This document shows positions 46,559 to 60,814 of a stretch of DNA of 64,000 nt, one piece after another (the stretch's first letter is position 1; each line of letters starts with the position of its first letter). Made by a program: the position numbers and the translations under genes. The stretch comes from Candidatus Iainarchaeum sp. (GTDB taxonomy: Archaea > Iainarchaeota > Iainarchaeia > Iainarchaeales > GCA-2688035), in the NCBI GenBank assembly GCA_017610205.1, contig JAFCCL010000001.1:172327-236326 (forward strand), written 5' to 3'. The notes beneath the pieces were generated by a model, which saw nothing but the letters and a program-made list of their open reading frames with translations, had not been told where the DNA came from and ran no database searches.

Positions 46559-46804
46559 ATGATTAGAAAAGCAAAAATGTCAGATGTTAAAAAAATAAAA
46601 AAGCTTCTTGAAATTTATGCAAAAAAAGAAATTTTGCTCAACAGAAGCCTGTTTAGTATCTACGAGTCATTGCGTGACTTTTTTGTTTTTGAAAAAAACG
46701 GAAAAGTTGTAGGCTGTTGTGCAATGCATTTCTGGAAAGATTGCCTTGATTGCCTGGATTTTCCAAATTGCTCCGAAATCGCAATGCAAAAGAAGATAAA
46801 ATAG
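46559..46804 (+). pseudogene. Short ArgA-like GNAT N-acetyltransferase with internal deletion
   Basis: MIRKAKMSDV...LLNRS...YESLRDFFV...VGCCAMH joined directly to the C-terminal WKDCLDCLDFPNCSEIAM; acetyl-CoA-binding core missing. Confidence 0.7.
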
Positions 46805-46813
46805 TTTTACATT

Positions 46814-46873
46814 AATACTTGGTTAATTGAAATAATATTTGGTTGATTAAAATAATACTTAGTTGGTTAAAAT
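46814..46873 (+). repeat. Three imperfect 20-bp tandem repeats upstream of argS
   Basis: AATACTTGGTTAATTGAAAT / AATATTTGGTTGATTAAAAT / AATACTTAGTTGGTTAAAAT. Confidence 0.7.
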
Positions 46874-48596
46874 GGCAGAATTTAAAGAATTAATTGCAGA
46901 AGTATTGGAACAGGCTCTTGACAGCAAACTAAAGAAAGACGAAATAATTGAACTTTTAGAAGTTCCTCCAATACCCAAAATGGGCGATTATGCATTTCCC
47001 TGCTTTAAGCTTGCAGAAATTCTGGGGAAAAAACCGGCAAAAATTTCATTTGAACTAGCAGAAAAAATCTTTTTACCAGATGGCATTGAAGGAATGAATC
47101 CAAACGGACCATACCTGAATTTTTTTGCAGCAAAAGACATTGTTGCCAGAGACACAATCAACAAGGTAATAAAAAATGGCAACGAATTTGGAAGACACGA
47201 TTTTGGCAAAGGCCAAAAAATCATGGTAGAATACAGTGCACCAAACTCAAACAAGCCACTGCATTTAGGGCATTTGAGAAACAACTGCATTGGAATGGCA
47301 ATTTCAAACATTTTTGAATCAGCAGGAATGAAAGTTATAAAAGCAAGCCTTGTCAACGACAGAGGAATTCACATCTGCAAAAGCATGCTTGCATACAAGC
47401 TCTTTGGAAACAACGCAACACCTGAAAGCGCAAAGGAAAAACCAGACCACTTTGTAGGAGACTATTATGTAATGTACAATCAAATGGTCAAAGAAACCCC
47501 TGATTTGGAAAAACAAGCTTACGACATGCTGCAAAAATGGGAAAAGGGAGACAAGGAAACAAAAAACCTGTGGAAAAAAATGACTTCCTGGGCAGTTAAA
47601 GGATTTAAGGAAACTTATACAGAATTTGGAAGCATATTTGACGAATGGTTTTTTGAATCACAATACTACAACAAAGCAAAACAAATCCTAAAACTTGGAG
47701 AAGAAAAGGGACTGTTCAAAAAAAACAGCGACGGAGCCCTTGTTGCAGAACTTGAAAACCAGGGACTTTCAAACAAAACAGTTTTGAGGTCGGACGGAAC
47801 CTCAATTTATATCACAAACGATTTGGCTTTAACAAAACACAAATTTGAGCACTTTAAACTTAACGAAAGCGTTTGGGTTGTGGGAAACGAACAAGACCTT
47901 TACTTCAGACAACTTTTTAAAATATTTCAACTCCTTGGATTTAAATGGGCAAAAAATTGCATGCATTTAAGCCACGGAATGGTAAACCTGCCTTCAGGAA
48001 AACTTAAAAGCAGGGAAGGCAAAGTTGTTGACGCAGACGACATAATTAAGGAATTGGAAGACCTTGCAACAGAAGAAATAAAAAAAAGAAACAAAAAGAT
48101 TAATGAAAAAGAACTTGCAGCAAGAAGCAGGGCAATTGGCCTGGCTGCAATAAAATTCCACATGCTAAAGGTCGCAGTACACAAAGACATAATGTTTGAC
48201 CCAAAGAAAAGCATTTCATTCGAAGGAGAAACAGGCCCATATATTCAATACACTTATGCCAGGGCAAAAAGCATTCTTGCAAAAGCAGGCAAAATGAAAA
48301 TAAAAAAATCCGGATTTGAAAGATTAATTGGACCGGAAGAGCAAAAACTTTTGAAACTGCTTGCAAACTACCCCGACGCAGTAAAAAAAAGCTTTAAACA
48401 ACTAAGCCCGCACATCATCTGCCAATCAATGATTGAAATTGCTGAAGCATTCAACACATTTTACCAAAAGCACAAAGTACTAAAAGCAGGAAGCGAAGAA
48501 ATCAAAATCGAAAGAATTTCCCTAGTACAAGCAACAGCCCAAGTGCTAAAAAACGGTTTGGAATTGCTTGACATTGAAGCAATTGAAAAGATGTGA
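46872..48596 (+). CDS. argS: Arginyl-tRNA synthetase
   Basis: GDYAFPCF, GPYLNF, PNSNKPLHLGHLRN, KLKSREG, GETGPYIQYTYAR. Confidence 0.97.
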   Translation: MAEFKELIAEVLEQALDSKLKKDEIIELLEVPPIPKMGDYAFPCFKLAEILGKKPAKISFELAEKIFLPDGIEGMNPNGPYLNFFAAKDIVARDTINKVIKNGNEFGRHDFGKGQKIMVEYSAPNSNKPLHLGHLRNNCIGMAISNIFESAGMKVIKASLVNDRGIHICKSMLAYKLFGNNATPESAKEKPDHFVGDYYVMYNQMVKETPDLEKQAYDMLQKWEKGDKETKNLWKKMTSWAVKGFKETYTEFGSIFDEWFFESQYYNKAKQILKLGEEKGLFKKNSDGALVAELENQGLSNKTVLRSDGTSIYITNDLALTKHKFEHFKLNESVWVVGNEQDLYFRQLFKIFQLLGFKWAKNCMHLSHGMVNLPSGKLKSREGKVVDADDIIKELEDLATEEIKKRNKKINEKELAARSRAIGLAAIKFHMLKVAVHKDIMFDPKKSISFEGETGPYIQYTYARAKSILAKAGKMKIKKSGFERLIGPEEQKLLKLLANYPDAVKKSFKQLSPHIICQSMIEIAEAFNTFYQKHKVLKAGSEEIKIERISLVQATAQVLKNGLELLDIEAIEKM

Positions 48597-48845
48597 CTAA
48601 GGCAACTTCATACCGCGCTTTGCAGCAATCTTTTTCATATTGACATAATCCGCCTGCGTAAGTCTTGTATCATATACAGAATCAGAAACCTTTTTCTGAA
48701 TGCGCCTCAAGATATCCTTTTCTCCAAGGGTAAAAGTTGCCTCAGGCGATTCCCTCAGCAAATCAAGGCCTTTGGAAATTTTAAGCTTTAGCCTTTGACC
48801 ACTCGGCTTTCTCCTAACAACCCTTTTAATCGGCTTTCTGACCAT
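48597..48845 (-). CDS. Small basic hypothetical protein
   Basis: MVRKPIKRVVRRKPSG... Confidence 0.55.
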   Translation of the reverse strand: MVRKPIKRVVRRKPSGQRLKLKISKGLDLLRESPEATFTLGEKDILRRIQKKVSDSVYDTRLTQADYVNMKKIAAKRGMKLP

Positions 48846-48974
48846 AATATAAAAACGCACTCCGGCAATTTAATTCTTTCTATTCGCGGATTCGAGCATT
48901 ATTCCATAAAAATAGCCGGCTTTAAATCTATTATCTTTTTGTTTTAAATGGGGTACTAAACTTTGTTTCTTAAA

Positions 48975-49784
48975 TTAAACCCAACAGTTTTTGTCCCTTA
49001 TCTTTGAAGTTCTTCTTACAACACAGCCTCCGCCACATTTTTCAAAAAAAAGGCAAGAAGTACATTGTTTGCATATTTTTGTAATTATTTTAAATTCAGC
49101 CCATATTTCAAAAAAATCGTCTTGGAAAGAAAATTTTGTTTTGCTGTATCTGCAAACAGACAAGTTTGCATTGGAATCAATACAAAAAGAAAGTTTTCCT
49201 GCAGGGCATATTCCAGAAAAATTTTCGTTTATAAGAGCCATCAAAGGCAAATCACTTAAAAGGGTTATCTGCCTTTTTTTTGCTTCGCAAGCAAGTTTTT
49301 TTAGCATAAAGGCATAAGTTGATTTTTGTATTTTTTTTGTTGGATTTGAAAAAACATTGACTATTTTTATACTATTTTCTTCCATTATTTTAAGAGCGGT
49401 TGGAAAAGAAACAAACAAATTAAGATCAACAAGGGCTATCGGCATTTTAATATCTTTAAAAAAAAGGGCTATTTTTTTTATATTTTTAAGCATTTTTTTA
49501 TTAAAAATAAGTCTTAACGCTGAAATTTTACAGGTTTTGAGTTGTAAAAGCATTTTTGGATTAAAACCTGTTACTGTTATTGCAATACTTTTATTTAGCA
49601 AAAGTTTAACAAGTTCTTTTGCAACTAAAATTTTTTTTGAGGAAAGACGGCCAAGAAAGATATTAATGCCAAAGGCTGTGCTTTCATGCACTATTTTGGC
49701 AATTTTTTTGCAACAAACTTTTTTAGAGCTACTTAAATCAATTTCACAAATTACAGGTTTTTTTAGCTGATCTTCATAAAACAT
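48975..49784 (-). CDS. SPASM-domain protein with degenerate radical SAM core
   Basis: No CxxxCxxC; C-terminal CPAGK...VC...CKQCTSC....CGGGC...NC. Confidence 0.75.
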   Translation of the reverse strand: MFYEDQLKKPVICEIDLSSSKKVCCKKIAKIVHESTAFGINIFLGRLSSKKILVAKELVKLLLNKSIAITVTGFNPKMLLQLKTCKISALRLIFNKKMLKNIKKIALFFKDIKMPIALVDLNLFVSFPTALKIMEENSIKIVNVFSNPTKKIQKSTYAFMLKKLACEAKKRQITLLSDLPLMALINENFSGICPAGKLSFCIDSNANLSVCRYSKTKFSFQDDFFEIWAEFKIITKICKQCTSCLFFEKCGGGCVVRRTSKIRDKNCWV

Positions 49785-50725
49785 AGTGGGTCCCGTTCCA
49801 AAAAATTTTTATATTTTGCAAAAGCATGAGCTCTACAGCCTCTGCAAATGTTAAGAATTTTACATTTTTTGCAGGTGGTATTTAGTTTTGATTTGTCACG
49901 CAAAGTCTTAAACAGATCTGAATTATTCCAAGCAGTTACCAAGTTTTGTTCCATAAGATTTGAGTCTGAAATTCTTAGTTTTGCACAAGGAAAAAATTTT
50001 CCATGTACATCAATAAGTGCACCAAATTTTCCTGCAATACACCCAAAATTGTTTAATGTGGCAATTTCTGGTTCAAAATCCTCAGCACCTATAAGATTAA
50101 ATAGGGGGTCTTCACAAGAGATTAACTCATTTGAAAGTGCTTTGTTATAAATTCTTTGAAGAATTTGCTTAAACTCTTTTGAAGTAAAAAGATTTTTTTG
50201 GAGTGATTTGGTGTTATTTGGAGGAATCATTCTTTGAAATCCGATTGGAATTTGGTACTGTTGTGAAAATTCTATTAATTTATTAATCTGATTTTTGTTG
50301 TTATTGCCTAAAGTACAAAGGACAGAAACTTTCTGTTTATTTTCTTTCAAAAAAAGAACGCTTTCTATAATCTTTTTTGTCAATGCTCCAGTTGTACTGT
50401 CTAAACTAACTTGAACAAAATTAAATCTTTTAATCTGCTTTAGATTTTCTTTAGCTGTAAGACCGTTTGTAAGAAGACCAGTATTAAAGTGGTGGTTCGA
50501 AACACTTTTTGAAATTTCTTGAAATTTACTATGTAATGTTGGTTCCCCTCCAGTAATAATTAAATATTTTGTTCCAATTTTGTCTGCTTCATGCAAAATT
50601 TTATTTATAAAAGAAACCGGCATTTCATCGTTGCTTTTATTTTTTCCAAGATAGCAGTACTCACAATTTAAATTACATTTTTCTGTAACTTCCAATTCCA
50701 ATATATTTAAATTAAACAAGTACAA
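49763..50725 (-). CDS. Radical SAM/SPASM maturase
   Basis: CNLNCEYC, TGGEP, TNG, VSLD; GCIAG...PC...CKKC....CRGCRA...DPLC. Confidence 0.92.
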   Translation of the reverse strand: MYLFNLNILELEVTEKCNLNCEYCYLGKNKSNDEMPVSFINKILHEADKIGTKYLIITGGEPTLHSKFQEISKSVSNHHFNTGLLTNGLTAKENLKQIKRFNFVQVSLDSTTGALTKKIIESVLFLKENKQKVSVLCTLGNNNKNQINKLIEFSQQYQIPIGFQRMIPPNNTKSLQKNLFTSKEFKQILQRIYNKALSNELISCEDPLFNLIGAEDFEPEIATLNNFGCIAGKFGALIDVHGKFFPCAKLRISDSNLMEQNLVTAWNNSDLFKTLRDKSKLNTTCKKCKILNICRGCRAHAFAKYKNFLERDPLCFMKIS

Positions 50726-51011
50726 TCAGCCCATTGTTGTATACCTGCAAAAGAAACTTGTTAACCGCCAGTGAAATCTCTTTTTTTGAAAAGTTAGAAT
50801 ATTTTTTGCATAAAATACCAATTATTTCTTTTACCGATTTTTTGCCATCACAGTGCCTCCAAACTATAGCTTCCTTTTCTGAAATAAAAAACATTTTTGG
50901 TTCGGTGGTTTTACTGCCTTTGCCAATCATCAAAAAAATACCGTCTTTTTCTTCTCTGCAAAATACAGTCTTCTTTTTTTGCGGCTGACTTTTTTCATTC
51001 AATAATACCAT
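50712..51011 (-). CDS. PqqD-like RiPP recognition element (RRE)
   Basis: AIVWRHCDGKKSVKEII..LCKKY...VNKFL..V...GLI. Confidence 0.85.
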   Translation of the reverse strand: MVLLNEKSQPQKKKTVFCREEKDGIFLMIGKGSKTTEPKMFFISEKEAIVWRHCDGKKSVKEIIGILCKKYSNFSKKEISLAVNKFLLQVYNNGLIVLV

Positions 51012-51294
51012 GTTTTTTCAACTCTAATAAAAAATTATTTGTTTCCGAAATAACTTTTTCTTTTGGAATATTTTCATCTTCAATTTCATTAAAAAGATTG
51101 TTTGCAAGTTCATTCACTGTGTGTTTTCCATCGCACAAAAAAAATACTTTTGATTCAAAATTTCCCAGTTTAAAGAAAGAATGGTATTTTATTTCTTTTT
51201 TGGCATAACGTGGAAATATTACCGTGTTTCCAAGTTTTGTTTTTCTGAATTTTACTAATTTGCATTTTATCGGTTTCCATGTATTAGTAAACAT
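50995..51294 (-). CDS. PqqD-like RiPP recognition element (RRE)
   Basis: KVFFLCDGKHTVNELA...ETNNFLLELKKHGII; likely ATG 51294. Confidence 0.85.
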   Translation of the reverse strand: MFTNTWKPIKCKLVKFRKTKLGNTVIFPRYAKKEIKYHSFFKLGNFESKVFFLCDGKHTVNELANNLFNEIEDENIPKEKVISETNNFLLELKKHGIIE

Positions 51295-51334
51295 AATAAA
51301 TATTGCTATACAAAAATATATTAAGGTTTTACTA
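51295..51334. promoter_or_regulatory. 40-bp divergent promoter region shared by the RRE operon and leuS
   Basis: AT-rich gap with TATA-like AATATATTAA between ATG 51294 (-) and GTG 51335 (+). Confidence 0.5.
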
Positions 51335-54205
51335 GTGCAGCTTAATTTTGACAAGATTACGCAAAAATGGCAAAATGAATGGACAAAAAAAGGGCTTGGA
51401 AACGCAGAATCCATAAAAGGCAAAAAAAAATTCTACTTAATTTTTGCTTATCCAGGAGTGTCGGGCTTTTTGCATGTTGGCCATATGCGCGGTTATACAT
51501 ATGCAGATATAATAACCAGATTTAAAAGAATGCAAGGATACAATGTTCTTTTTCCCGCAGGATTTCATGCAAGCGGATTGCCGGCGATTGCTTATTCTGT
51601 AAAAATAAAGAAAAAAGACCCTGCTACAATCAATCAACTTAAAGAGTATGGTTTGAATGATAAACAAATACAAGAACTTGAAGATCCAAAAAACACTGTT
51701 GAATTTTTTAAGCGAATTTATGTTGAAGACTTTTGGAAAAAATTCGGATTCCTTATTGATTATAGAAGATTAATCAGCACTATCCAACCAGAGTATAACA
51801 AATTTATGGAATGGCAGTTTTCAAAACTTAAAGAGGCTAATTTACTTGTACAAAAACCACACTTTGCCCCCTGTTGCCCAAATTGTGGCCCTGTTGCAAT
51901 AGACACTGCAGAAACAGATATAGCCCAGGGTGGAACAGCTGAAACAATAAATTATACAATTATAAAATTTAAGCTCGGAAAAAGAATTTTGCCTGCAGCA
52001 ACATTAAGACCAGAAACCGTTTACGGGGTAATAAACATGTGGCTTAATCCAGAAACAGAACTCGTTGTTGTCAAATATAATAATGAAGAATGGATTCTTT
52101 GTAAAGAAGCTGCTGAAAAGCTAAAATTCCAAAAGCATAACTTTGAAATCACTTCTGAAAAAATACCTGCCAAAAGCCTTATTGGAAAAAAATGCATTAA
52201 TCCAGTAAACAACCAAGAAGTATTGATTCTTCCAGCAGGATTTGTTGAATGCGGAATAGGCACAGGGGTTGTAATGAGTGTTCCAAGCCATGCACCATAT
52301 GATTGGATTGCCTTAAATGACTTACAGCAAAATCCTCAAAAAATTGAAGAGTATAAAATTTCAAAAGATAAACTTTTGAAACTAAAGCCAGTATCACTTA
52401 TTAAAACACCTGATTTTGGAGAACACCCAGCTATAGAATTATGCAAAAGTTTAGGCTTAAAAAGCCAAAATGAGACTGAAAAGCTTGAAGAAGCTACCCA
52501 GATAGTGTACCGAAAAGAATTTCATTCTGGAAAGCTAAATTCACTTTATGGAAAAAATGAGGGTGTAAAAGTATCTGATGCAAAAGATATTCTAATAAAA
52601 GAATTTGAACAAAAAAATGTCGCTGAAGAAATGTACGGTTTTTCAGAAAAAGTAGTGTGCAGATGTGGAACCGAAGTCATTGTCAAACTTATTCCAAATC
52701 AATGGTTTATAAAATATTCTGATAACGAACTTACTTCAAAAAGTAAAGAACAAGCAAAAAAAATGTCAATATGGCCAGATCAATACAAAAAAGAGCTTCC
52801 AGGAATTCTCGACTGGTTTAATGATAGAGCCTGTGTAAGACAGGGGAGCTGGCTTGGAACAAAATTTCCTTTTGACAGACAATGGGTAATTGAGCCAATA
52901 TCTGATTCTACGCTTTATCCTTTAATTTATATTTTAAGCAAATATATAACTGAAGGTAAAATAAATTCAGAAAATTTATGTAATGAATTCTTTGACTATA
53001 TTTTTTTAAGCGAAGGAACGTTAGATGCTGTTGCAAAAAAAACAGGGCTTGATAAAAAATTAATACGCCAAGTAAAAAACGATTTTGAATATTGGTATCC
53101 TCTTGATTTGAACTTAGGCGGTAAGGAACACAAAACAGTACATTTTCCTGTTTTCTTAATGAATCACGTAGCGGTTCTAAAAACAAAAGATTTACCTAAA
53201 GGAATTTTTGTAAATTGGTGGGTAGTTGGCGAAAATGGAAAAATCTCTAAATCAAAAGGAGGGGCTGTTTCATTGCATAATCTAGCAAAAGTATTTTCGG
53301 TTGATGCCTTAAGACTTTACTACTGCCACATTGGAAGTGCACACATTGACATACAATTTGATGAAAAGATTGCACAAAAATATAAAAGTATCCTGCAAAA
53401 AGATTATTTATTAATTGAAAAAGTTGTAAAAAGCAAAAAATCCGTCAAAAGAAAAATAATAGACGACTGGCTTGTTGAAACACTTAACCAAAAAATGCAA
53501 AAGGCAATAAATTCTATAGATGGATTAAATTTGAAGAAATTTTCACAAGAAATTTATTACAGCATACCTGAAGACCTTAACTGGTATCTGAAAAGAGATG
53601 GTTTAAACAAAAAACTTTTGCTTTCTTTTTTAGAACAATGGACAAAGCTTATGATGCCAATAACACCACATTTAGCCGAAGAAATTTGGCATACCTTATT
53701 AAAAAAGAAAACACTTGTTTCTACAGAGCAATGGAAAAAAATCAACAAAAAAACTAAACAAGAAGTCATACAAACAGAAATTTTAATTAAAACAATTTTG
53801 AGTGATCTTGAAAATATTAAACAACTTGCAAAGATTAACAAGCCTAAAAAAATAACGTTTTTTGTTGCACCAGCCTGGAAAAATGAGGCCATAAAAACAG
53901 TGGTAGCTGCCTGCAAGGATCAACCAGACTTTAAAAAAGCAATGGCTGGCTGGATGAAAAATCCAAAACTAAAAAAACATGCTGACAAATCACCAAAAAT
54001 GGTTAAAAAAATCATTTCGGATTTTTGGAAAATGAAACAATTTAAGCCAATAGCAGAATTTGAAATTCTAAATAAAGAGAAAAAATTCTTTGAAAAATTA
54101 TATAATACACAGATAGAAGTAACCACTGCTTCAAAAACAAAAAAAGAATTGCAAACTAAAGCTTCTTCGGCCATGCCTATGAAACCAGCAATTTATATCG
54201 AATGA
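51335..54205 (+). CDS. leuS: Leucyl-tRNA synthetase, archaeal type
   Basis: FAYPGVSGFLHVGH, ATLRPET and GTGVVMSVPSHAPYD (CP1 editing), SDSTLY, GKEH, KISKS, C-terminal PMKPAIYIE; start probably GTG 51335. Confidence 0.96.
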   Translation: MQLNFDKITQKWQNEWTKKGLGNAESIKGKKKFYLIFAYPGVSGFLHVGHMRGYTYADIITRFKRMQGYNVLFPAGFHASGLPAIAYSVKIKKKDPATINQLKEYGLNDKQIQELEDPKNTVEFFKRIYVEDFWKKFGFLIDYRRLISTIQPEYNKFMEWQFSKLKEANLLVQKPHFAPCCPNCGPVAIDTAETDIAQGGTAETINYTIIKFKLGKRILPAATLRPETVYGVINMWLNPETELVVVKYNNEEWILCKEAAEKLKFQKHNFEITSEKIPAKSLIGKKCINPVNNQEVLILPAGFVECGIGTGVVMSVPSHAPYDWIALNDLQQNPQKIEEYKISKDKLLKLKPVSLIKTPDFGEHPAIELCKSLGLKSQNETEKLEEATQIVYRKEFHSGKLNSLYGKNEGVKVSDAKDILIKEFEQKNVAEEMYGFSEKVVCRCGTEVIVKLIPNQWFIKYSDNELTSKSKEQAKKMSIWPDQYKKELPGILDWFNDRACVRQGSWLGTKFPFDRQWVIEPISDSTLYPLIYILSKYITEGKINSENLCNEFFDYIFLSEGTLDAVAKKTGLDKKLIRQVKNDFEYWYPLDLNLGGKEHKTVHFPVFLMNHVAVLKTKDLPKGIFVNWWVVGENGKISKSKGGAVSLHNLAKVFSVDALRLYYCHIGSAHIDIQFDEKIAQKYKSILQKDYLLIEKVVKSKKSVKRKIIDDWLVETLNQKMQKAINSIDGLNLKKFSQEIYYSIPEDLNWYLKRDGLNKKLLLSFLEQWTKLMMPITPHLAEEIWHTLLKKKTLVSTEQWKKINKKTKQEVIQTEILIKTILSDLENIKQLAKINKPKKITFFVAPAWKNEAIKTVVAACKDQPDFKKAMAGWMKNPKLKKHADKSPKMVKKIISDFWKMKQFKPIAEFEILNKEKKFFEKLYNTQIEVTTASKTKKELQTKASSAMPMKPAIYIE

Positions 54206-55233
54206 ATTATAAAATTCCAAAACGCAATCTATTAAAAAAAATTAAAGGAATCATACTAATGGAACCAATATTTGAATTTCCTACAGAGTGTCATTTTATA
54301 CCATGCAATAAAACAACAACAAAAATTGAGCAATTTCCAAACTTGAGCAGTTACCGGCAAATGACATTAAAAGAAATAGACCTATTTTTAAAAAAACTCA
54401 AGGGCCAAGGAATAGGAAAACTTTTTCTTACAGGCCCAGAACCCATGCAACGAAATGACTTAGAAAAAATTATTGACCTGGCTTATAAAAAAGAGATTAA
54501 AGTGGATTTAAGAACAACCGGATTAGAGCTTACAACAAAAAGACTTGAAAATATCAAAGGCAAAGTAAATGCAGTAATATTTGATTTATTTGGCGGTAAA
54601 AAAAACACAAACAAATATTTTGGAAGCGGTTCACATGAAAAAATACTTGCAAATATGAACGCTTGCAGTAGCTTGGGATTAAATACTATTGTTTGTTTAA
54701 ATATTTCAAACGAAAATGTTGGCCAAATAGAAAAAATAATTAAAAAAATCCCCAAAAGAATTCGGGGCATTGTATTTTCTTATTTTGTCGCTTATAAAAA
54801 AGATGTTGTTGAATTGCAGTTGAGCCAAAAAAAATTCTTGAAAGAATTTAAAAAAATAAAAAAAGTTGCTGAAAACAAAGGATTCAAAGTTATATCAAGT
54901 TGCAAAATAGTGTTTGACAAAAATTGTCCAAAAAATGTTTACAGACTTTGCTCTGCTGGAAAATTTAAACTATCTGTTCTACCTAATGGCGATGTTGTAC
55001 CTTGTGAGCTCCTTAAATTAAGTCCTAAACTGATTGCAGGGAATGTACTTAACGAAAGTATTGAAAATATTTGGAAAAACAAAACTTTAAAAATGTTTAG
55101 GGCAATTTCACAAGAAAGCCTTTCAGGAAAATGCAGTAACTGCAAATTATTTAATTTTTGTCCAAGCTGTCGTGCGATTCCATACAATCTTAAAAATCAA
55201 CTTTATGGAAGCATTGAATTTTGCAAACTTTAA
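54202..55233 (+). CDS. Radical SAM-like/SPASM protein lacking CxxxCxxC
   Basis: TGPEP, RTTG; CSAGK...PNGDVVPC...CSNC....CPSCRA...C; ATGA overlap with the leuS stop. Confidence 0.8.
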   Translation: MNYKIPKRNLLKKIKGIILMEPIFEFPTECHFIPCNKTTTKIEQFPNLSSYRQMTLKEIDLFLKKLKGQGIGKLFLTGPEPMQRNDLEKIIDLAYKKEIKVDLRTTGLELTTKRLENIKGKVNAVIFDLFGGKKNTNKYFGSGSHEKILANMNACSSLGLNTIVCLNISNENVGQIEKIIKKIPKRIRGIVFSYFVAYKKDVVELQLSQKKFLKEFKKIKKVAENKGFKVISSCKIVFDKNCPKNVYRLCSAGKFKLSVLPNGDVVPCELLKLSPKLIAGNVLNESIENIWKNKTLKMFRAISQESLSGKCSNCKLFNFCPSCRAIPYNLKNQLYGSIEFCKL

Positions 55234-56210
55234 GGCGTTGCCAAGCACAGTGGGTCTTGTGCTGAAAAAATACCAGTCCTTCCAAAAGCAGCTGCCCTGC
55301 AACCACCGTAGCATATACTGTAAAATTTGCAAGAAATACATTCTTTGCACTGTGTTTTTTTTCTAAAATCATTTGCTTTTTTGCTATTCCATGCTTTAAA
55401 AAGGCTATTATTGCAAATATTGCCTAAAACAACAGGGTAATAGGCACATGGTTTTATGTCACCAACAGAACTAATATAACCCTGTGTTTCAAAGCAAGGC
55501 ATTGTTTTTTTTTGCCAGGATGATTTTACTGCAAATTCAAAGCAAAAAGGCAAAAACTTTATTTCAATTTTATTTTCAAGTGCTTGTTTTTTCTTTAAAA
55601 GAAACAAATTAACTTCTTTTAACTGTTTTTTGCTTATTACTAAATTTTCTGTTGCACTACCAGTAGTAATAACTGGTCTTACACGAAAGGAGTCCACTTT
55701 AAGTTTGAGCAGTAAGTCAAAAATTTTTGGAACTTGCTTTATGTTTTGGTTTGTTAAAGTTGTTCTAACCCATATCTGAAAGCCAAGTTTTTTTGCTAAC
55801 TTTATAGATTTTATTGTTTTATCAAAAGCGCCCTTTTTTCCCCTAAAACAGTCATGCTCGTTAGCAGTTGCTGCATCAATGCTTGTGTGAATTATATAAA
55901 CGCCATTTTTTTGCAATTTTTGAGCAATTTTTTTATTAAAAATAGTCATGTTGGAGTAGAGTATGTTAATTATTTCAAAATCAGTTAAAGAAGAAGCTAA
56001 TTCATAAATAAACTTATCTCTTAACAATGGTTCTCCACCTGTAAGAATGGCTGTTTTGGTTTTCATTTTTTTCAAATCTTCCAAAACAGGTTGAAAATCA
56101 TTTAGGGTAATTTCTTTTTGTTTTGCTTTTCCAGCTTCTGTAAAACAATGGTGGCACTTTAGATTGCAAGCAGTAGTGGTTTGTATTCTGATTGACTTTA
56201 TATTATACAT
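55230..56210 (-). CDS. Radical SAM/SPASM maturase
   Basis: CNLKCHHC, TGGEP, SID; PC...PC...CISC....CYGGCRA...DPLC. Confidence 0.92.
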   Translation of the reverse strand: MYNIKSIRIQTTTACNLKCHHCFTEAGKAKQKEITLNDFQPVLEDLKKMKTKTAILTGGEPLLRDKFIYELASSLTDFEIINILYSNMTIFNKKIAQKLQKNGVYIIHTSIDAATANEHDCFRGKKGAFDKTIKSIKLAKKLGFQIWVRTTLTNQNIKQVPKIFDLLLKLKVDSFRVRPVITTGSATENLVISKKQLKEVNLFLLKKKQALENKIEIKFLPFCFEFAVKSSWQKKTMPCFETQGYISSVGDIKPCAYYPVVLGNICNNSLFKAWNSKKANDFRKKTQCKECISCKFYSICYGGCRAAAFGRTGIFSAQDPLCLATP

Positions 56211-57193
56211 TCTTTAGTACCCCCAAACTTTTTGCAGTAAGGGTCTTGTTCAAAGTAGGATCCTTTAACCAGATAACTCATCGCTCTACAACCGCCATTG
56301 CAAGTTTCTTTCAAAACACATTTTGCACAAGCTCCTTTTAGATTATCAGAATTTTTTATTTCTTTAAAAAAATCATTTTTCCAAATTTTTGTTAACGGTT
56401 CTTTTTTGATATTGCCAAGCACAAGAGGAAAAACAGGGCAAGGCCAAACATCTCCATTATAACAGACATGAAAACTATATCCAATAGGGCAACCTTTAGC
56501 AAGATTTTTACTGTTTGGTTTATTTGCAAGTTCCGGCATTTCTATATTAATACGCAGGTGTCTTGTTTTTTTTGAAGCAAGAAAACTTAAAAACTTTTCA
56601 AAATCATTTTTTTCTAAAAGAAAATTTTCCAAATTTTTAGCTCGCCCTAGTGGCATCATTGGAAAAAATATAACAAGATTAACTCCAAGAACATCAAGCA
56701 AGTCAACAAATTTATCCATTAAACCGATATTTTTCCTAGAAAGAGTAGTAAGCACAGCAACTGGCAGGCCCTGTTTTACACACTTTTTTATTCCTTTTAT
56801 TGCCAAATCAAATGAACCCTTGCCCCTAATAGAGTCATTATATTCTTTAGGACCTTCTAAAGACACTTTAATAGCATATATCCCAGCTTTTTTAAGTTCA
56901 ACTATTATTTTAGTATTAAGCAATAGACCATTTGTAGTAACGCCCCAAACAATATTTTGTGTTTTAACTTGATTGCCAATCTTAATTAATGTAGCTGGAA
57001 AAAGTAATGGTTCGCCTCCAGTTATTTCCAAAACTCTAACCTTATTTTCAATACAATAATTAAGAATTTTATCAATATACTTTTCCTGCATAACTTCGTT
57101 ATCAGATTTTGCACTTACAGCACAGTGACTACAGGAAAGATTACATGACTCAGTCAAACTAAACGAAAGAGAAATTGGAGCTGAAAAAATCAT
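56198..57193 (-). CDS. Radical SAM/SPASM maturase
   Basis: CNLSCSHC, TGGEP, TTNG, VSLEG; GCPIG...PC...CAKC....CNGGCRA...DPYC. Confidence 0.92.
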   Translation of the reverse strand: MIFSAPISLSFSLTESCNLSCSHCAVSAKSDNEVMQEKYIDKILNYCIENKVRVLEITGGEPLLFPATLIKIGNQVKTQNIVWGVTTNGLLLNTKIIVELKKAGIYAIKVSLEGPKEYNDSIRGKGSFDLAIKGIKKCVKQGLPVAVLTTLSRKNIGLMDKFVDLLDVLGVNLVIFFPMMPLGRAKNLENFLLEKNDFEKFLSFLASKKTRHLRINIEMPELANKPNSKNLAKGCPIGYSFHVCYNGDVWPCPVFPLVLGNIKKEPLTKIWKNDFFKEIKNSDNLKGACAKCVLKETCNGGCRAMSYLVKGSYFEQDPYCKKFGGTKECII

Positions 57194-57204
57194 TTTAATC
57201 AATT

Positions 57205-57282
57205 TTACAAACAGTGTGCTATATTAAGCATACATCCCGCAAACTTTATTTCTTTTAGTTCTAATTTAAAATTGCTTTTCAT
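57205..57282 (-). CDS. Putative RiPP precursor peptide MKSNFKLELKEIKFAGCMLNIAHCL (25 aa)
   Basis: GGAGG RBS at 57290-57294, ATG 57282, TAA 57205; 11 nt upstream of the first maturase ATG; absent from the ORF track because it is below the size cutoff. Confidence 0.75.
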   Translation of the reverse strand: MKSNFKLELKEIKFAGCMLNIAHCL

Positions 57283-57431
57283 AGAAAAACCTCCAATTTA
57301 TTGTAATAAAATATGTATATAATAGATTCTTTTAATTTAATAAACTTTCTGTTGTTTCACCAAATAATGAATCTGATTAGAAAAAGGGCTTTAAAAGATA
57401 GGGTAGAAGAGAAAAAAAAGAAAAAGGAAAA

Positions 57432-57448
57432 AGGGCTGAAAAAGCCCT
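57432..57448 (-). terminator. Hairpin followed by T-rich tract on the minus strand
   Basis: AGGGCT-gaaaa-AGCCCT with long A runs 5' on the plus strand. Confidence 0.5.
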
Positions 57449-57516
57449 CTTTTGATTTAATTATTGTTCTTAAACTGAGATTGTTACAACGCCACAACCA
57501 AAGGCAGACAAATTTT

Positions 57517-58122
57517 TTACTTATTAACTGCATTCCAAATAAGCTTTTTGAAGGGAATTCTTCCATAAACCAGCTCCCTTCCGCGAAAGTGCTTCAAAAC
57601 GTTTTCTTTTGGATAACCCATTTCAACCGCAAGCTTTGCGCTTAGGATATCTGCAAAAAGCTCTTCTGCCTGTTCGTAGGAAATTTTTTTTGCATCGGCA
57701 AACTTTCCCAAATTTTTCTTTGGAAAATGCGCATACTCATGTGCCAGAGTAAAAATTCCTTCAACTGTCAGCTTGCTTCCGTCAAACACATGCTCTGCAG
57801 GCATATTAATGTAATTGCTTTTTACAATAAAACGCTGCTTGCCCTTTTGAAAAATCTTAATTGCATTAACCTGCTCGCCTTTTACAACAGACGCAAAAAC
57901 CCTGCCGTGTTTGAAGAAAATCTTTTCCTTAAGTGTTTTCCTTGGATAAAAATAAATCGGCATGTTTACAACATTTTGCCTCATTCTTGCATAAAGGGCT
58001 TTTTCAACATTGGACTTTGCCTTTTTTTCAAGCTTGACAAGAGTATTAGAAGCAAGGTCCCTAAAATTTTCCAAAGCCCTTGTTCGCTCCTTGTCAAGAA
58101 TCTTTTTTCTAAAAAAACCCAT
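57517..58122 (-). CDS. Basic protein with HExxH zinc-metallopeptidase motif
   Basis: TLAHEYAH...EELFAD. Confidence 0.65.
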   Translation of the reverse strand: MGFFRKKILDKERTRALENFRDLASNTLVKLEKKAKSNVEKALYARMRQNVVNMPIYFYPRKTLKEKIFFKHGRVFASVVKGEQVNAIKIFQKGKQRFIVKSNYINMPAEHVFDGSKLTVEGIFTLAHEYAHFPKKNLGKFADAKKISYEQAEELFADILSAKLAVEMGYPKENVLKHFRGRELVYGRIPFKKLIWNAVNK

Positions 58123-58162
58123 ACAAGAGAAAAAGAAGTTTGATAATAAATAGTTATCGGCT

Positions 58163-59929
58163 TTATTCCAAAACAGCCTTTATTCTTCTCACACCAGCAC
58201 TGACACTTTCTTCCTTCTTTATTTTAAATTTTCCAATCTCACCAGTATTTTTTACATGCGGACCTGCACAAACCTCTTTTGAAACATCTCCAATAGTGTA
58301 AACTGAAACCTTTTCAGGAGCATACTTTGCGTCAAAAAATGCAAGAGCGCCCTTTTTTTTGGCTTGGTCAAGCGACATTTCTTTCCTTTGAACAGAAATC
58401 TTTGCATCAATTGCATTGTTTACAATCTTTTCAACTTCCTCAAGCTGTTCCTTTGAAACCTTTTCAGGGTTTGAAAAATCAAACCTTAATCTTTCAGGAG
58501 TAATGTTGCTTCCCTTTTGCTGCACATGTTCTCCAAGAACTTTTCGCAATGCAGCATGAAGCAAGTGGGTTGCAGTATGCATTCTTAATGCAATTTCAGA
58601 ATGGTCTGCAAGACCTGACTTAAACTTTCCGGTAGTTGACTTTCTTGAAAGCGCCTGGTGCTTTTCAAACTCTTTTTGAAACGCTTGCTTGTCAACTTCA
58701 AGGCCTTTTTCTTTTGCCATTTCAACAGTCATCTCCAAAGGAAAGCCATAGCTTTGATATAAAAGAAACGCGTCATTTGCGGAAATTTTGCCATGCTTTT
58801 TGAAAATCTTTTTAAACATTTTTACTCCCTGGCCCAAAACCTTTGCAAACTTTTCTTCCTCTGCCTCAATTTCTTTAAAAATTGCAACAGAATTTTTCTT
58901 AAGCTCAGGCCATTCATCACCATAAATTTCAACAACCTTTTTTGCAATCTCGCGGCAAAAGCTTCCTTCAATTCCCAAAAGCCTTCCATGCCTTACTGCT
59001 CGCCTAATCAGCCTTCGCAGAACATAACCTTGCTCTATATTACTTGGCACAATTCCTTTTCCCTCACTTAAAACAAATACAACAGCGCGAATGTGATCTG
59101 CAATAATGTGGGCACTTTTTTCATTAAATTCCCTTGCAAGCTGCTTTATCTTTTCCATTAGTGGCAAAAACATTTCTGTTTCGTAAACATTTCTCTTGCC
59201 CTGCAGCATTGCAACAGTTCTTTCAACACCCATTCCTGTGTCAACATTCATTTGCTTTAATTTTTCAAATTTGCCTTCAGCAGTTTTGTTATACTGCATA
59301 AAGACATCATTCCAAATTTCAAAAAACTTTCCACAATTGCAACCAGGTTTGCATTCCTTGCCACACGCTTTCTTGCCTGTGTCGTAAAATATTTCAGTGT
59401 CAGGACCACAAGGACCTGTCTTTCCAGCTGGGCCCCACCAATTGTCTTTTTTTTCAAAAAAGAAAATTTTCTCAGAAGAAATTCCCAAAGACAGCCAAAC
59501 ATTGGCTGATTCTTCATCCTTTGGAGCATCTTTGTCACCTGCAAAGCAGGTTACACTAATCTTTTCTTTATTCAATCCAAGCCATTTTTTGCTTGTTAAA
59601 AATTCATAACTCCATTCAATTGCCTTTTTTTTGAAGTAATCTCCAAGCGACCAGTTTCCCAGCATAAAAAAGAAAGTTAGGTGCGATTGGTCTCCTACTT
59701 CGTCAATATCCCCAGTTCTAATGCATTTTTGGTTGTTTGCAAGCCTTTTTCCTTCAGGATGCTGCTGTCCAAGCAAATATGGAACAAGAGGGTGCATTCC
59801 TGCAGCAGTAAACAAAACAGTTGGATCATGCTCTGGAATAAGCGACGCACTCGGAATAATTGCATGCCCATTTTCCTTAAAGAAATCTAAATAGGCCTTT
59901 GCAAGCCTTTTTGCAGTCCACATGGACAA
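58163..59929 (-). CDS. alaS: Alanyl-tRNA synthetase (short form, no C-Ala domain)
   Basis: DPTVLFTAAGMHPL, QKCIRTGD, GPCGPDTE, DTGMGVER, HTATHLL, CAGPHV, GVRRIKA. Confidence 0.97.
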   Translation of the reverse strand: MSMWTAKRLAKAYLDFFKENGHAIIPSASLIPEHDPTVLFTAAGMHPLVPYLLGQQHPEGKRLANNQKCIRTGDIDEVGDQSHLTFFFMLGNWSLGDYFKKKAIEWSYEFLTSKKWLGLNKEKISVTCFAGDKDAPKDEESANVWLSLGISSEKIFFFEKKDNWWGPAGKTGPCGPDTEIFYDTGKKACGKECKPGCNCGKFFEIWNDVFMQYNKTAEGKFEKLKQMNVDTGMGVERTVAMLQGKRNVYETEMFLPLMEKIKQLAREFNEKSAHIIADHIRAVVFVLSEGKGIVPSNIEQGYVLRRLIRRAVRHGRLLGIEGSFCREIAKKVVEIYGDEWPELKKNSVAIFKEIEAEEEKFAKVLGQGVKMFKKIFKKHGKISANDAFLLYQSYGFPLEMTVEMAKEKGLEVDKQAFQKEFEKHQALSRKSTTGKFKSGLADHSEIALRMHTATHLLHAALRKVLGEHVQQKGSNITPERLRFDFSNPEKVSKEQLEEVEKIVNNAIDAKISVQRKEMSLDQAKKKGALAFFDAKYAPEKVSVYTIGDVSKEVCAGPHVKNTGEIGKFKIKKEESVSAGVRRIKAVLE

Positions 59930-59962
59930 AAATGAGCTGGAAAAGGTTTAAAAGAAGGGTTT

Positions 59963-60814
59963 TCACCTGGCAAGAAAAATCTTTCCCTTTCTTATCCTGT
60001 CAACAAGGCCCTTAAGAGGGGTTTTTCCCTGATCAAACACTGAAACAAGCAGTCTGCCATCCTTTCCCTTACCCAAAACAAAGGCGTTCTTCATTATTGG
60101 GTCTGGTTCAATTTCAATCCCTGTTCCAAATCCGATTTTAGCTCCTTTTACCAAAAGACCATTTCTCTCATTCATAAGCTCTGCATCCATTCTTTCAAGT
60201 TCATTAAAAGAAATCTTATTCCTTTCCAAAAACCGGTAAATTTGTTCGTTTGTTAAAGCCTGGCCAAGTGGATGAGAAACCCTTTTATCCATTAAAGCAA
60301 TGTAAGCCTCCTCAAGGGTTGGAGCATTAACAAACTTTCTTACCTTTAAAAATTCTGAAACAAAGAACGTGCTAAGAGGCCTAATAATACATGTTTTGGT
60401 TGGCTGGTTTTTAAGCCAGTTAAATGCAAAAGTGTTTGCAAAAAATTGGGTAAAACCATCTGGTTCAGTTTTTCTGGAAACACTTCTCCTGTAAAGTTTT
60501 AAAACAAACGAAGGAACCCTGTGAGCCAAATCAGGCCTTTCCTGAATAAATTGAGCCTGCTCCGCTGAAAATAACCTAAACACTCTTGCGTGCTGTCCAA
60601 AACCAATCTCAACAGGGTGGACATTTTCAGAAAAGTGAACCCTGTCCTTTTTGTCAATCCTAACGCTTTTCAGCAACTGCCCTATCTTTTTACCGTGCCT
60701 CAAACCAAGATTTCGCCCGTTCTTGGTAATCAAAAGATTTGAACCAACCGGTCCTCTCTTGTGAATCATTACCCCAAAAGGAGTTTGCTGTCTCTTAACC
60801 TGCTTATTAAACAT
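59963..60814 (-). CDS. Protein-kinase-like fold orphan with basic N-terminus
   Basis: IGFGQHARVF (Gly loop), FVLKLY, DPIMKN (catalytic-loop-like), VFD. Confidence 0.55.
   Translation of the reverse strand: MFNKQVKRQQTPFGVMIHKRGPVGSNLLITKNGRNLGLRHGKKIGQLLKSVRIDKKDRVHFSENVHPVEIGFGQHARVFRLFSAEQAQFIQERPDLAHRVPSFVLKLYRRSVSRKTEPDGFTQFFANTFAFNWLKNQPTKTCIIRPLSTFFVSEFLKVRKFVNAPTLEEAYIALMDKRVSHPLGQALTNEQIYRFLERNKISFNELERMDAELMNERNGLLVKGAKIGFGTGIEIEPDPIMKNAFVLGKGKDGRLLVSVFDQGKTPLKGLVDRIRKGKIFLAR

Follow-up and report, generated by a model that had tools for sequence, protein, structure and literature searches.

A short gene ahead of a radical SAM/SPASM enzyme

We analysed a window of 64,000 nucleotides (nt) from a Candidatus Iainarchaeum genome, within which all coordinates are given as positions, and focused on a very short open reading frame (ORF) that lies directly ahead of a gene for a radical SAM/SPASM enzyme. 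The genome holding the window (G000) measures 1.37 Mb in 24 contigs and is 92% complete, with a guanine-plus-cytosine (GC) content of 37.7%; the window includes an archaeal 23S rRNA fragment and an archaeal RNase P RNA, which points to an archaeon with a small genome that is probably DPANN-like. The ORF is read from the minus strand as 25 sense codons specifying MKSNFKLELKEIKFAGCMLNIAHCL, from an ATG at 57282-57280 to a TAA at 57207-57205, so that the gene with its stop occupies 57205-57282. A Shine-Dalgarno-like GGAGG (57290-57294, minus strand) stands 7 nt ahead of the ATG, and an 11-nt gap (57204-57194) separates the stop from the ATG, at 57193, of the first enzyme gene. These readings coincide with those of a preliminary description of the window, which had reported a GGAGG ribosome-binding site followed by a 25-residue peptide ending 11 nt before the first radical SAM start codon. 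That description had also pointed to two cysteines in Cx6C spacing, a histidine and a terminal leucine within a nine-residue tail, and these are indeed present as Cys17, Cys24, His23 and Leu25.

An in-frame TAA 18 nt upstream of the ATG makes position 57282 the first possible start. Farther upstream, a terminator-like hairpin with a long T-run (57428-57452, minus strand) adjoins the AT-rich region ahead of the peptide and closes the preceding unit, which contains alanyl-tRNA synthetase (AlaRS) and an ORF named p201; the peptide would therefore be the first gene of its own unit. The ORF thus has the features by which precursor genes are recognised, namely its own ribosome-binding site and a co-oriented position directly upstream of a maturase gene. 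From single-sequence evidence alone, these features are no more than suggestive. The peptide matched no model in NCBIfam release 20 (to E ≤ 10) or in Pfam, and a literature string search with CMLNIAHC and FAGCMLN returned no match. In the accessible parts of the literature on DPANN radical SAM peptides and archaeal ranthipeptide SPASM enzymes, we likewise found nothing on this peptide system.

The adjacent enzyme, rSAM1 (56198-57193, minus strand; 331 residues), carries the cysteine motif of the SAM cluster as CNLSCSHC and a full seven-cysteine SPASM domain. It is the enzyme with which the peptide is conserved, as judged from a 63% identical relative, P0002, and a 31% identical homologue in a metagenome contig.

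Conservation of the peptide with its enzyme

Orthologues of rSAM1 are very rare. Neither 41 related genomes nor 196 genomes of the order contained one, the best non-self matches reaching 31-35% identity, and a locus in G017 (L002) was rejected as a lone radical SAM gene beside a transposase-like ORF. Among 5.8 billion clustered proteins, the sole close relative was P0002, encoded on a 1,633-bp contig, followed by P0003 and P0004 at 35%. An exhaustive HMMER search of 1.84 billion representatives found nothing beyond P0002 closer to rSAM1 than 39% (P0058), and a search of genome contigs for loci related to rSAM1 and P0004 yielded no confirmed relative.

As called, P0002 begins with 13 extra residues (MHAQYSPLLIGAY) ahead of the methionine corresponding to the rSAM1 start in the alignment. 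Since the rSAM1 frame of the window reads MYA*YSTLFVKLIKM upstream of and up to its own ATG, this extension is what DNA homologous to the ten final codons of the peptide gene yields when read out of frame. When the extension was back-translated and read in the overlapping frame, the residues C, M, L, N, I, A, H, C and L were allowed at nine successive positions, followed by a possible stop, and a transfer-matrix calculation put the chance that a random open frame would fit the peptide core at 1.3e-9. In the peptide frame, all nine determinable first positions (9/9) are identical between P0002 and the window, and all four certain differences fall at third positions; each is silent in the peptide frame and changes the residue in the rSAM frame. 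The same out-of-frame signature was absent from the 20 N-termini examined among the 149 non-self representatives listed in the HMMER search. As P0002 illustrates, an over-extended N-terminus left by a gene caller can keep the footprint of an uncalled upstream micro-ORF.

A second homologue came from DNA. Scanning the JGI metagenome collection with a degenerate CMLNIAHC pattern returned 10 loci against a rough expectation of about 10 chance matches, and tblastn on all 10 found an rSAM1 homologue at one locus only, L042. The other nine were rejected because the stretch examined held no rSAM1 homologue; six inspected pattern loci lacked either a start codon or a neighbouring radical SAM gene. L042 lies on contig Ga0326727_10001624 (GC about 60%), of whose 81,832 nt (81.8 kb) 2,419 nt were examined. 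Here the motif sits inside a 24-codon ORF, MRKFKLTLKKVRFAGCMLNIAHCM, and about 100 nt downstream begins a radical SAM/SPASM gene (L042_A) whose product shares 31% identity with rSAM1 (E 2.5e-71) and 50% with both P0003 and P0004. A second radical SAM/SPASM gene follows, and its best match among the five radical SAM/SPASM paralogues of the window is rSAM3, described below. After this second gene (L042:1-117, minus-strand reading), an ORF opening with two zinc-ribbon-like CxxC pairs runs off the stretch examined.

Over 25 aligned codons, the two peptide genes share 3 identical codons, differ only synonymously in 15 and non-synonymously in 7, and the nucleotide differences at first, second and third codon positions number 6/2/21. 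Within FAGCMLNIAHC (codons 14-24) the corresponding figures are 0/0/10, so that every difference is at a third position and every one is synonymous. Positions kept in the N-terminal part are F5, K6, L7, L9, K10, F14, A15 and G16, and the last residue is leucine in the window and methionine in L042. The family pattern is accordingly a short lysine-rich N-terminal part, xFKLxLKxxxFAG, an invariant CMLNIAHC, and then Leu or Met. Elsewhere, tblastn with the peptide and with L042_A found no match in plasmids, scanning viral contigs for the CMLNIAHC pattern gave 0 matches, and a search of 215 genomes of the phylum allowing up to one mismatch matched G000 alone.

These comparisons bear directly on whether the ORF is merely a chance open frame in a 5' leader. 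Frames of 25 codons are not rare in AT-rich DNA: across the whole genome, an ATG lies 4-10 nt downstream of 235 of 1376 GGAGG sites; 105 of these 235 open frames of at least 100 residues and 18 open frames of 20-30 residues. Such a frame would, however, be expected neither to differ from L042 in its core by 0/0/10 at the three codon positions, nor to leave in P0002 a footprint with a chance of 1.3e-9, nor to accompany the same enzyme family in all three cases (window, L042 and P0002; 3/3). We regard a chance frame as highly improbable, and as already contradicted by the P0002 footprint and the codon comparison with L042. Because the core has diverged from L042 by synonymous changes only and P0002 retains the out-of-frame footprint, the ORF stands above chance, and at the level of sequence the comparisons establish that a peptide gene exists, is kept with an rSAM1-family enzyme and evolves under strong purifying selection in the peptide frame. 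The proposal of a genuine precursor-like gene heading the enzyme operon is borne out in that the gene is kept with the first radical SAM/SPASM enzyme in two other organisms; the preliminary description had named the lack of comparable ORFs upstream of homologous maturases among its grounds for refutation, and such ORFs were found in L042 and, as a footprint, in P0002.

An island carrying its own leucyl-tRNA synthetase

The peptide is the first gene, at the right edge, of a low-GC island of 8,586 nt (48926-57511) that replaces the native leucyl-tRNA synthetase (LeuRS) of the genus. Its extent was drawn by blastn against a same-genus locus (L037, in G004), which is homologous to the window at 46749-48596 and 57512-59994 (83% each) and not between. 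Homology resumes at 57512, exactly the start codon of the native LeuRS, and at the other edge a 26-nt remnant (48900-48925) matches, at 96% identity, the 26 nt that end the LeuRS ORF of G004 and represents the 3' end of the displaced bacterial-type gene. GC content is 30.8% in the island and 37.0% in the remaining window. The gene order of arginyl-tRNA synthetase (ArgRS, plus strand), LeuRS (minus) and AlaRS (minus) is kept in three same-genus genomes and one same-family genome, whose LeuRS proteins are only about 28% identical to that of the window; the LeuRS of G004 is of the bacterial type (TIGR00396, 994 bits). The LeuRS in the island (51335-54205, plus strand; GC 32.4%; start placed by family-profile alignment) is of the archaeal type (TIGR00395, 818.6 bits against a cut-off of 648.5), its closest relatives are archaeal enzymes of 56-60% identity, one of them labelled Micrarchaeota, and it is the only LeuRS found in the 92% complete assembly. 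Because homology to G004 breaks at the island edges, the 26-nt remnant persists and the GC content is low, the island is taken to have replaced the native LeuRS in place while supplying its own. It is a horizontal acquisition that swapped a bacterial-type LeuRS for an archaeal-type one, and it represents a rare, cleanly delimited in-place replacement of an essential aminoacyl-tRNA synthetase (aaRS) by a different evolutionary type inside a biosynthetic cluster.

The nine genes of the island encode the peptide, three intact and two degenerate radical SAM/SPASM paralogues, two PqqD-like proteins and LeuRS. Besides rSAM1, the intact paralogues are rSAM2 (55230-56210, minus strand; CNLKCHHC), which overlaps the end of rSAM1, and rSAM4 (49763-50725, minus strand; CNLNCEYC). 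Of the two degenerate paralogues, rSAM3 (54202-55233, plus strand) directly follows LeuRS and starts at 54202 or at 54259 (324-residue form), and SPASM5 occupies 48975-49784 (minus strand). In the five-paralogue alignment, CxxxCxxC and TGGEP are kept in rSAM1, rSAM2 and rSAM4, and the SAM-cluster motif is gone from rSAM3, where TGGEP has also become TGPEP, and from SPASM5. Seven SPASM cysteines (C235, C252, C289, C292, C298, C302 and C320) are invariant in all five (5/5), including the degenerate pair. The three apparently active radical SAM enzymes of the preliminary description thus keep their motif and are joined by two paralogues that have lost CxxxCxxC and retain the seven SPASM cysteines. 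Homologues of rSAM3 are scarce, with only four non-self matches at E ≤ 1e-10, the best at 26-27% identity and none close.

The two PqqD-like proteins resemble the RiPP recognition element (RRE) of systems for peptides that are made on ribosomes and modified after translation (RiPPs). PqqD-b (50712-51011, minus strand) exceeds the Pfam gathering score (PF05402, 29.1 bits against 23.4) and PqqD-a (50995-51294, minus strand, with 51294 as the probable start) is a weak match below it (17.6 bits against 23.4); the two are 33% identical to each other over 52 residues (E 5e-6). Only about 40 nt (51295-51334) separate the starts assigned to PqqD-a (minus) and LeuRS (plus), so that two divergent promoters would have scarcely any space. 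No ORF with a ribosome-binding site was seen around the PqqD operon or in the spacer between ArgRS and SPASM5, and a second precursor at either place was rejected. Within that spacer, a 98-nt stretch (48681-48778) shares 70% identity with the spacer that separates ArgRS from LeuRS in G004, has no match in Rfam at gathering, and may be a small gene or a short conserved element that is not translated.

Beyond the right edge lies p201 (57517-58122, minus strand; 201 residues), which contains the motif HEYAH and weakly matches a zincin-like Pfam family (PF18818, E 3e-4, below gathering). It stands between LeuRS and AlaRS in two of the four relatives, G004 (87% identity) and G016 (60%). Because it is present in relatives without the island, p201 belongs to the synthetase neighbourhood and is not a dedicated protease, and it was rejected as a leader peptidase of the peptide. 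AlaRS itself (58163-59929, minus strand) is only 588 residues long, comprising the class II core and the second additional domain; its relatives measure 584-590 residues.

The embedded synthetase raises the question of whether the peptide product targets LeuRS, the archaeal-type enzyme of the island being the producer's resistant form by the logic of the tiarins. The LeuRS gene is flanked by cluster genes within the island, with rSAM3 directly downstream, and has the low GC content of the island; it replaced a bacterial-type LeuRS in situ, as the 26-nt remnant records, and the peptide core contains Leu19 and Leu25. Moreover, a recent preprint (bioRxiv 10.64898/2025.12.02.691738) describes RiPP clusters whose aaRS genes match a core residue. 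Any island removing an essential gene would nevertheless have to bring a replacement, whatever its own function; the L042 homologue ends in methionine, and no LeuRS is encoded in the 2.2 kb examined downstream of it. In addition, G000 has a single LeuRS, whereas tiarin producers, according to the preprint, always retained a housekeeping copy. We consider LeuRS a very improbable target. Of the link that had been suggested between the terminal leucine and LeuRS, what stands is that the synthetase belongs to the island that brought the peptide; the methionine in L042 and the lack of an extra LeuRS copy in G000 speak against the rest.

Proposed role and relation to known systems

Taken together, the data indicate that the peptide is probably a real, translated gene of an undescribed family, most likely the substrate of rSAM1 and further modified by other paralogues of the island. 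Its translation, its role as substrate, the type of modification and any part played by the PqqD-like proteins are what we infer from sequence. In the scheme that we propose, rSAM1 would act on the peptide and form a radical thioether or related crosslink from Cys17 and/or Cys24 within the nine-residue tail; rSAM2 and rSAM4 would then modify the peptide further, possibly partnered by the degenerate rSAM3 and SPASM5 in a non-catalytic capacity. The conserved N-terminal positions would fit a recognition sequence. The RRE-bound substrate of the preliminary description, with a leader of 16 residues and Cys or His crosslinks in the tail, is to be read as putative. A thioether-type first step seems most likely because, among solved enzymes, those nearest in sequence are maturases that form thioethers in peptides: the best solved relatives of rSAM1 are SkfB (1.6e-16), PDB entry 5wgg (8.2e-14), which we take to be the thioether-forming CteB, PqqE (1.3e-9) and an anaerobic sulfatase maturase (4.4e-8). 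The combination of CxxxCxxC with a seven-cysteine SPASM domain for two auxiliary clusters is also the motif set of ranthipeptide and sactipeptide maturases. A precursor role is favoured further because the size and position of the ORF match those of radical SAM/SPASM precursor genes and because an rSAM3-type enzyme is visible beside the L042 peptide as well.

Several observations weigh against this assignment. rSAM1 and rSAM2 have no fused RRE, both PqqD-like genes lie about 6 kb from the peptide in another operon of the island, and no PqqD gene occurs in the 2.2 kb downstream of the L042 peptide. Neither an exporter nor a peptidase is encoded in the island. Every NCBIfam match of the island enzymes is far below its curated cut-off, and the highest among them are to the heme-pathway models AhbD (166.5 for rSAM1 and 176.5 for rSAM2, against 500) and NirJ2 (149.3 and 174.3, against 500), with the peptide-maturase models WgkB, MftC, PapB and PqqE scoring lower; membership of the AhbD/NirJ heme pathway was rejected because these equivalog cut-offs were not reached. 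Finally, only three instances of the peptide family are known, two of them as full sequences, the P0002 member being deduced from a protein N-terminus in which the middle base is undeterminable in nine of ten codons.

The conservation itself demonstrates selection and does not specify a role, and the peptide could instead be a micropeptide that is not a substrate, serving either as an accessory subunit that binds a metal or a cluster or as a leader peptide that regulates the radical SAM operon. Cys17, His23 and Cys24 could ligate a metal, and the adjacent enzymes lack a fused RRE. The position and size of the ORF are nevertheless those of radical SAM/SPASM precursor genes, and other loci of the order show a short ORF with PqqD and radical SAM genes. 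A leader acting by attenuation would be expected to show unusual RNA structure, and the fold of the 234-nt region upstream of the peptide is not unusual (z = 0.29); coupling to the enzyme is argued against by the differing spacer, which is 11 nt in the window and about 100 nt in L042. We judge a non-substrate function very unlikely, for the accessory subunit and the leader peptide alike.

Within the substrate reading, a more specific possibility is that the peptide gives rise to a small intracellular cofactor-like or signalling molecule, and not to an exported peptide antibiotic, its tail being excised after radical crosslinking in the manner of PqqA/PQQ or MftA/mycofactocin. Because the 11-residue stretch FAGCMLNIAHC is shared without change by an AT-rich archaeon and a GC-rich organism, with only 31% identity between their enzymes, the idea gains some weight, and with it the cofactor-like product that the preliminary description had suggested; a constraint of this kind points to a conserved target or a cofactor-like role. 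Several radical SAM/SPASM paralogues together with PqqD-like proteins would serve a tail of nine residues, the island has no exporter, immunity gene or peptidase, and the mycofactocin and PQQ maturase models are among the matches, although below their cut-offs. Set against this, the invariance is weakly sampled with two full peptide sequences, the final residue varies between Leu and Met, the peptide has neither E-x3-Y nor a C-terminal GVY-type motif, and no PqqB/C-like or MftD/E-like tailoring or excision genes are present in the island. On balance we hold such a product to be possible, though unlikely. More doubtful still is a broader scenario in which the invariant CMLNIAHC tail would yield an unknown small peptide-derived molecule (a cofactor, signal or enzyme inhibitor), made by a pair of rSAM1-type and rSAM3-type enzymes and shared horizontally between bacteria and a DPANN-like archaeon, which could act on the LeuRS type still used by close relatives.

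Related arrangements were seen elsewhere in the order. Unrelated short ORFs occur at L023 (G129:C56; 39 residues, with GGAGG upstream), L027 (G192:C11; 37 residues) and L028 (G076:C7; 58 residues), each with a radical SAM/SPASM gene and a gene or domain resembling PqqD downstream of it, and because these three share the layout of short ORF, PqqD and radical SAM, peptide-maturation clusters seem common in the order. G000 itself contains 14 matches to rSAM1, and a pair of radical SAM genes (about 468 and 333 residues) at G000:C19:24403-27705 recurs side by side in G002:C77, G003:C16, G017:C3 and G015:C2; this pair may be a second conserved system. Very few archaeal modified-peptide systems have been characterised and, to our knowledge, none from the small-genome symbiotic archaeal lineages. 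The candidate substrate-enzyme pair described here is now concrete, and a peptide of 24-25 residues is short enough for synthesis.

Among known systems, the sactipeptides and ranthipeptides (SkfA/SkfB, SCIFF and PapB type) share with the window a short cysteine-containing precursor directly upstream of a SPASM maturase with motifs for two auxiliary clusters, and SkfB and 5wgg are the best solved sequence relatives of rSAM1. SCIFF, like the window peptide, is strongly conserved and has no obvious exporter in its cluster. The window system differs in that rSAM1 lacks a fused N-terminal RRE, the peptide has two cysteines only and five radical SAM/SPASM paralogues are gathered in one island. Membership of the curated families was rejected for PapB (rSAM1, 105.1 against 340), the SCIFF maturase (76 against 425) and StsB (88.5 against 625), and the SkfB model was matched by rSAM2 only (90.8 against a cut-off of 300).

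The PQQ (PqqA/PqqD/PqqE) and mycofactocin (MftA/MftB/MftC) pathways resemble the window system in having a precursor of very few residues whose C-terminal tail is highly conserved, together with a discrete protein of the PqqD family and an enzyme of the radical SAM/SPASM type, and the absence of an exporter from the island is a further likeness. Unlike these pathways, the island has no homologues of PqqB/C or MftD/E/F, and its PqqD-like genes are not beside the peptide. PQQ was rejected because the tail CMLNIAHCL has no Glu or Tyr, and hence no Glu-x3-Tyr, and TIGR02109 scored 90.3 against 381.35. MftA ends in Val-Tyr; the window peptide ends in His-Cys-Leu, TIGR03962 scored 118.4 against 265, and mycofactocin was rejected as well. 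The SynChlorMet cassette (ScmD, PqqD-like; ScmE and ScmF, radical SAM/SPASM) is similar in combining several paralogues with a discrete PqqD-like protein, and ScmD, ScmE and ScmF are among the matches, but all score far below their cut-offs, with 124.4 against 400 for ScmF and 17.7 against 100 for ScmD, and its precursor is unrelated.

In the tiarins, trifolitoxin-like aaRS inhibitors, the aaRS of the cluster matches a core residue and is proposed to confer immunity, according to the preprint (bioRxiv 10.64898/2025.12.02.691738), and an embedded aaRS gene with a matching amino acid in the core is likewise found in the window. Unlike the tiarins, the window relies on radical SAM/SPASM enzymology, with no tiarin-type enzymes seen and no conserved Gln after the specificity residue, and the L042 peptide ends in Met; a tiarin-like aaRS duplication was rejected, as the 92% complete G000 shows no second, housekeeping LeuRS. 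The system thus appears to work like radical SAM/SPASM peptide maturation and yet falls outside each described family by the membership tests applied, which used curated score cut-offs and motifs of the precursors. We assign the peptide to a putative, undescribed precursor family with an unusually short invariant core and a patchy distribution across two prokaryotic domains.

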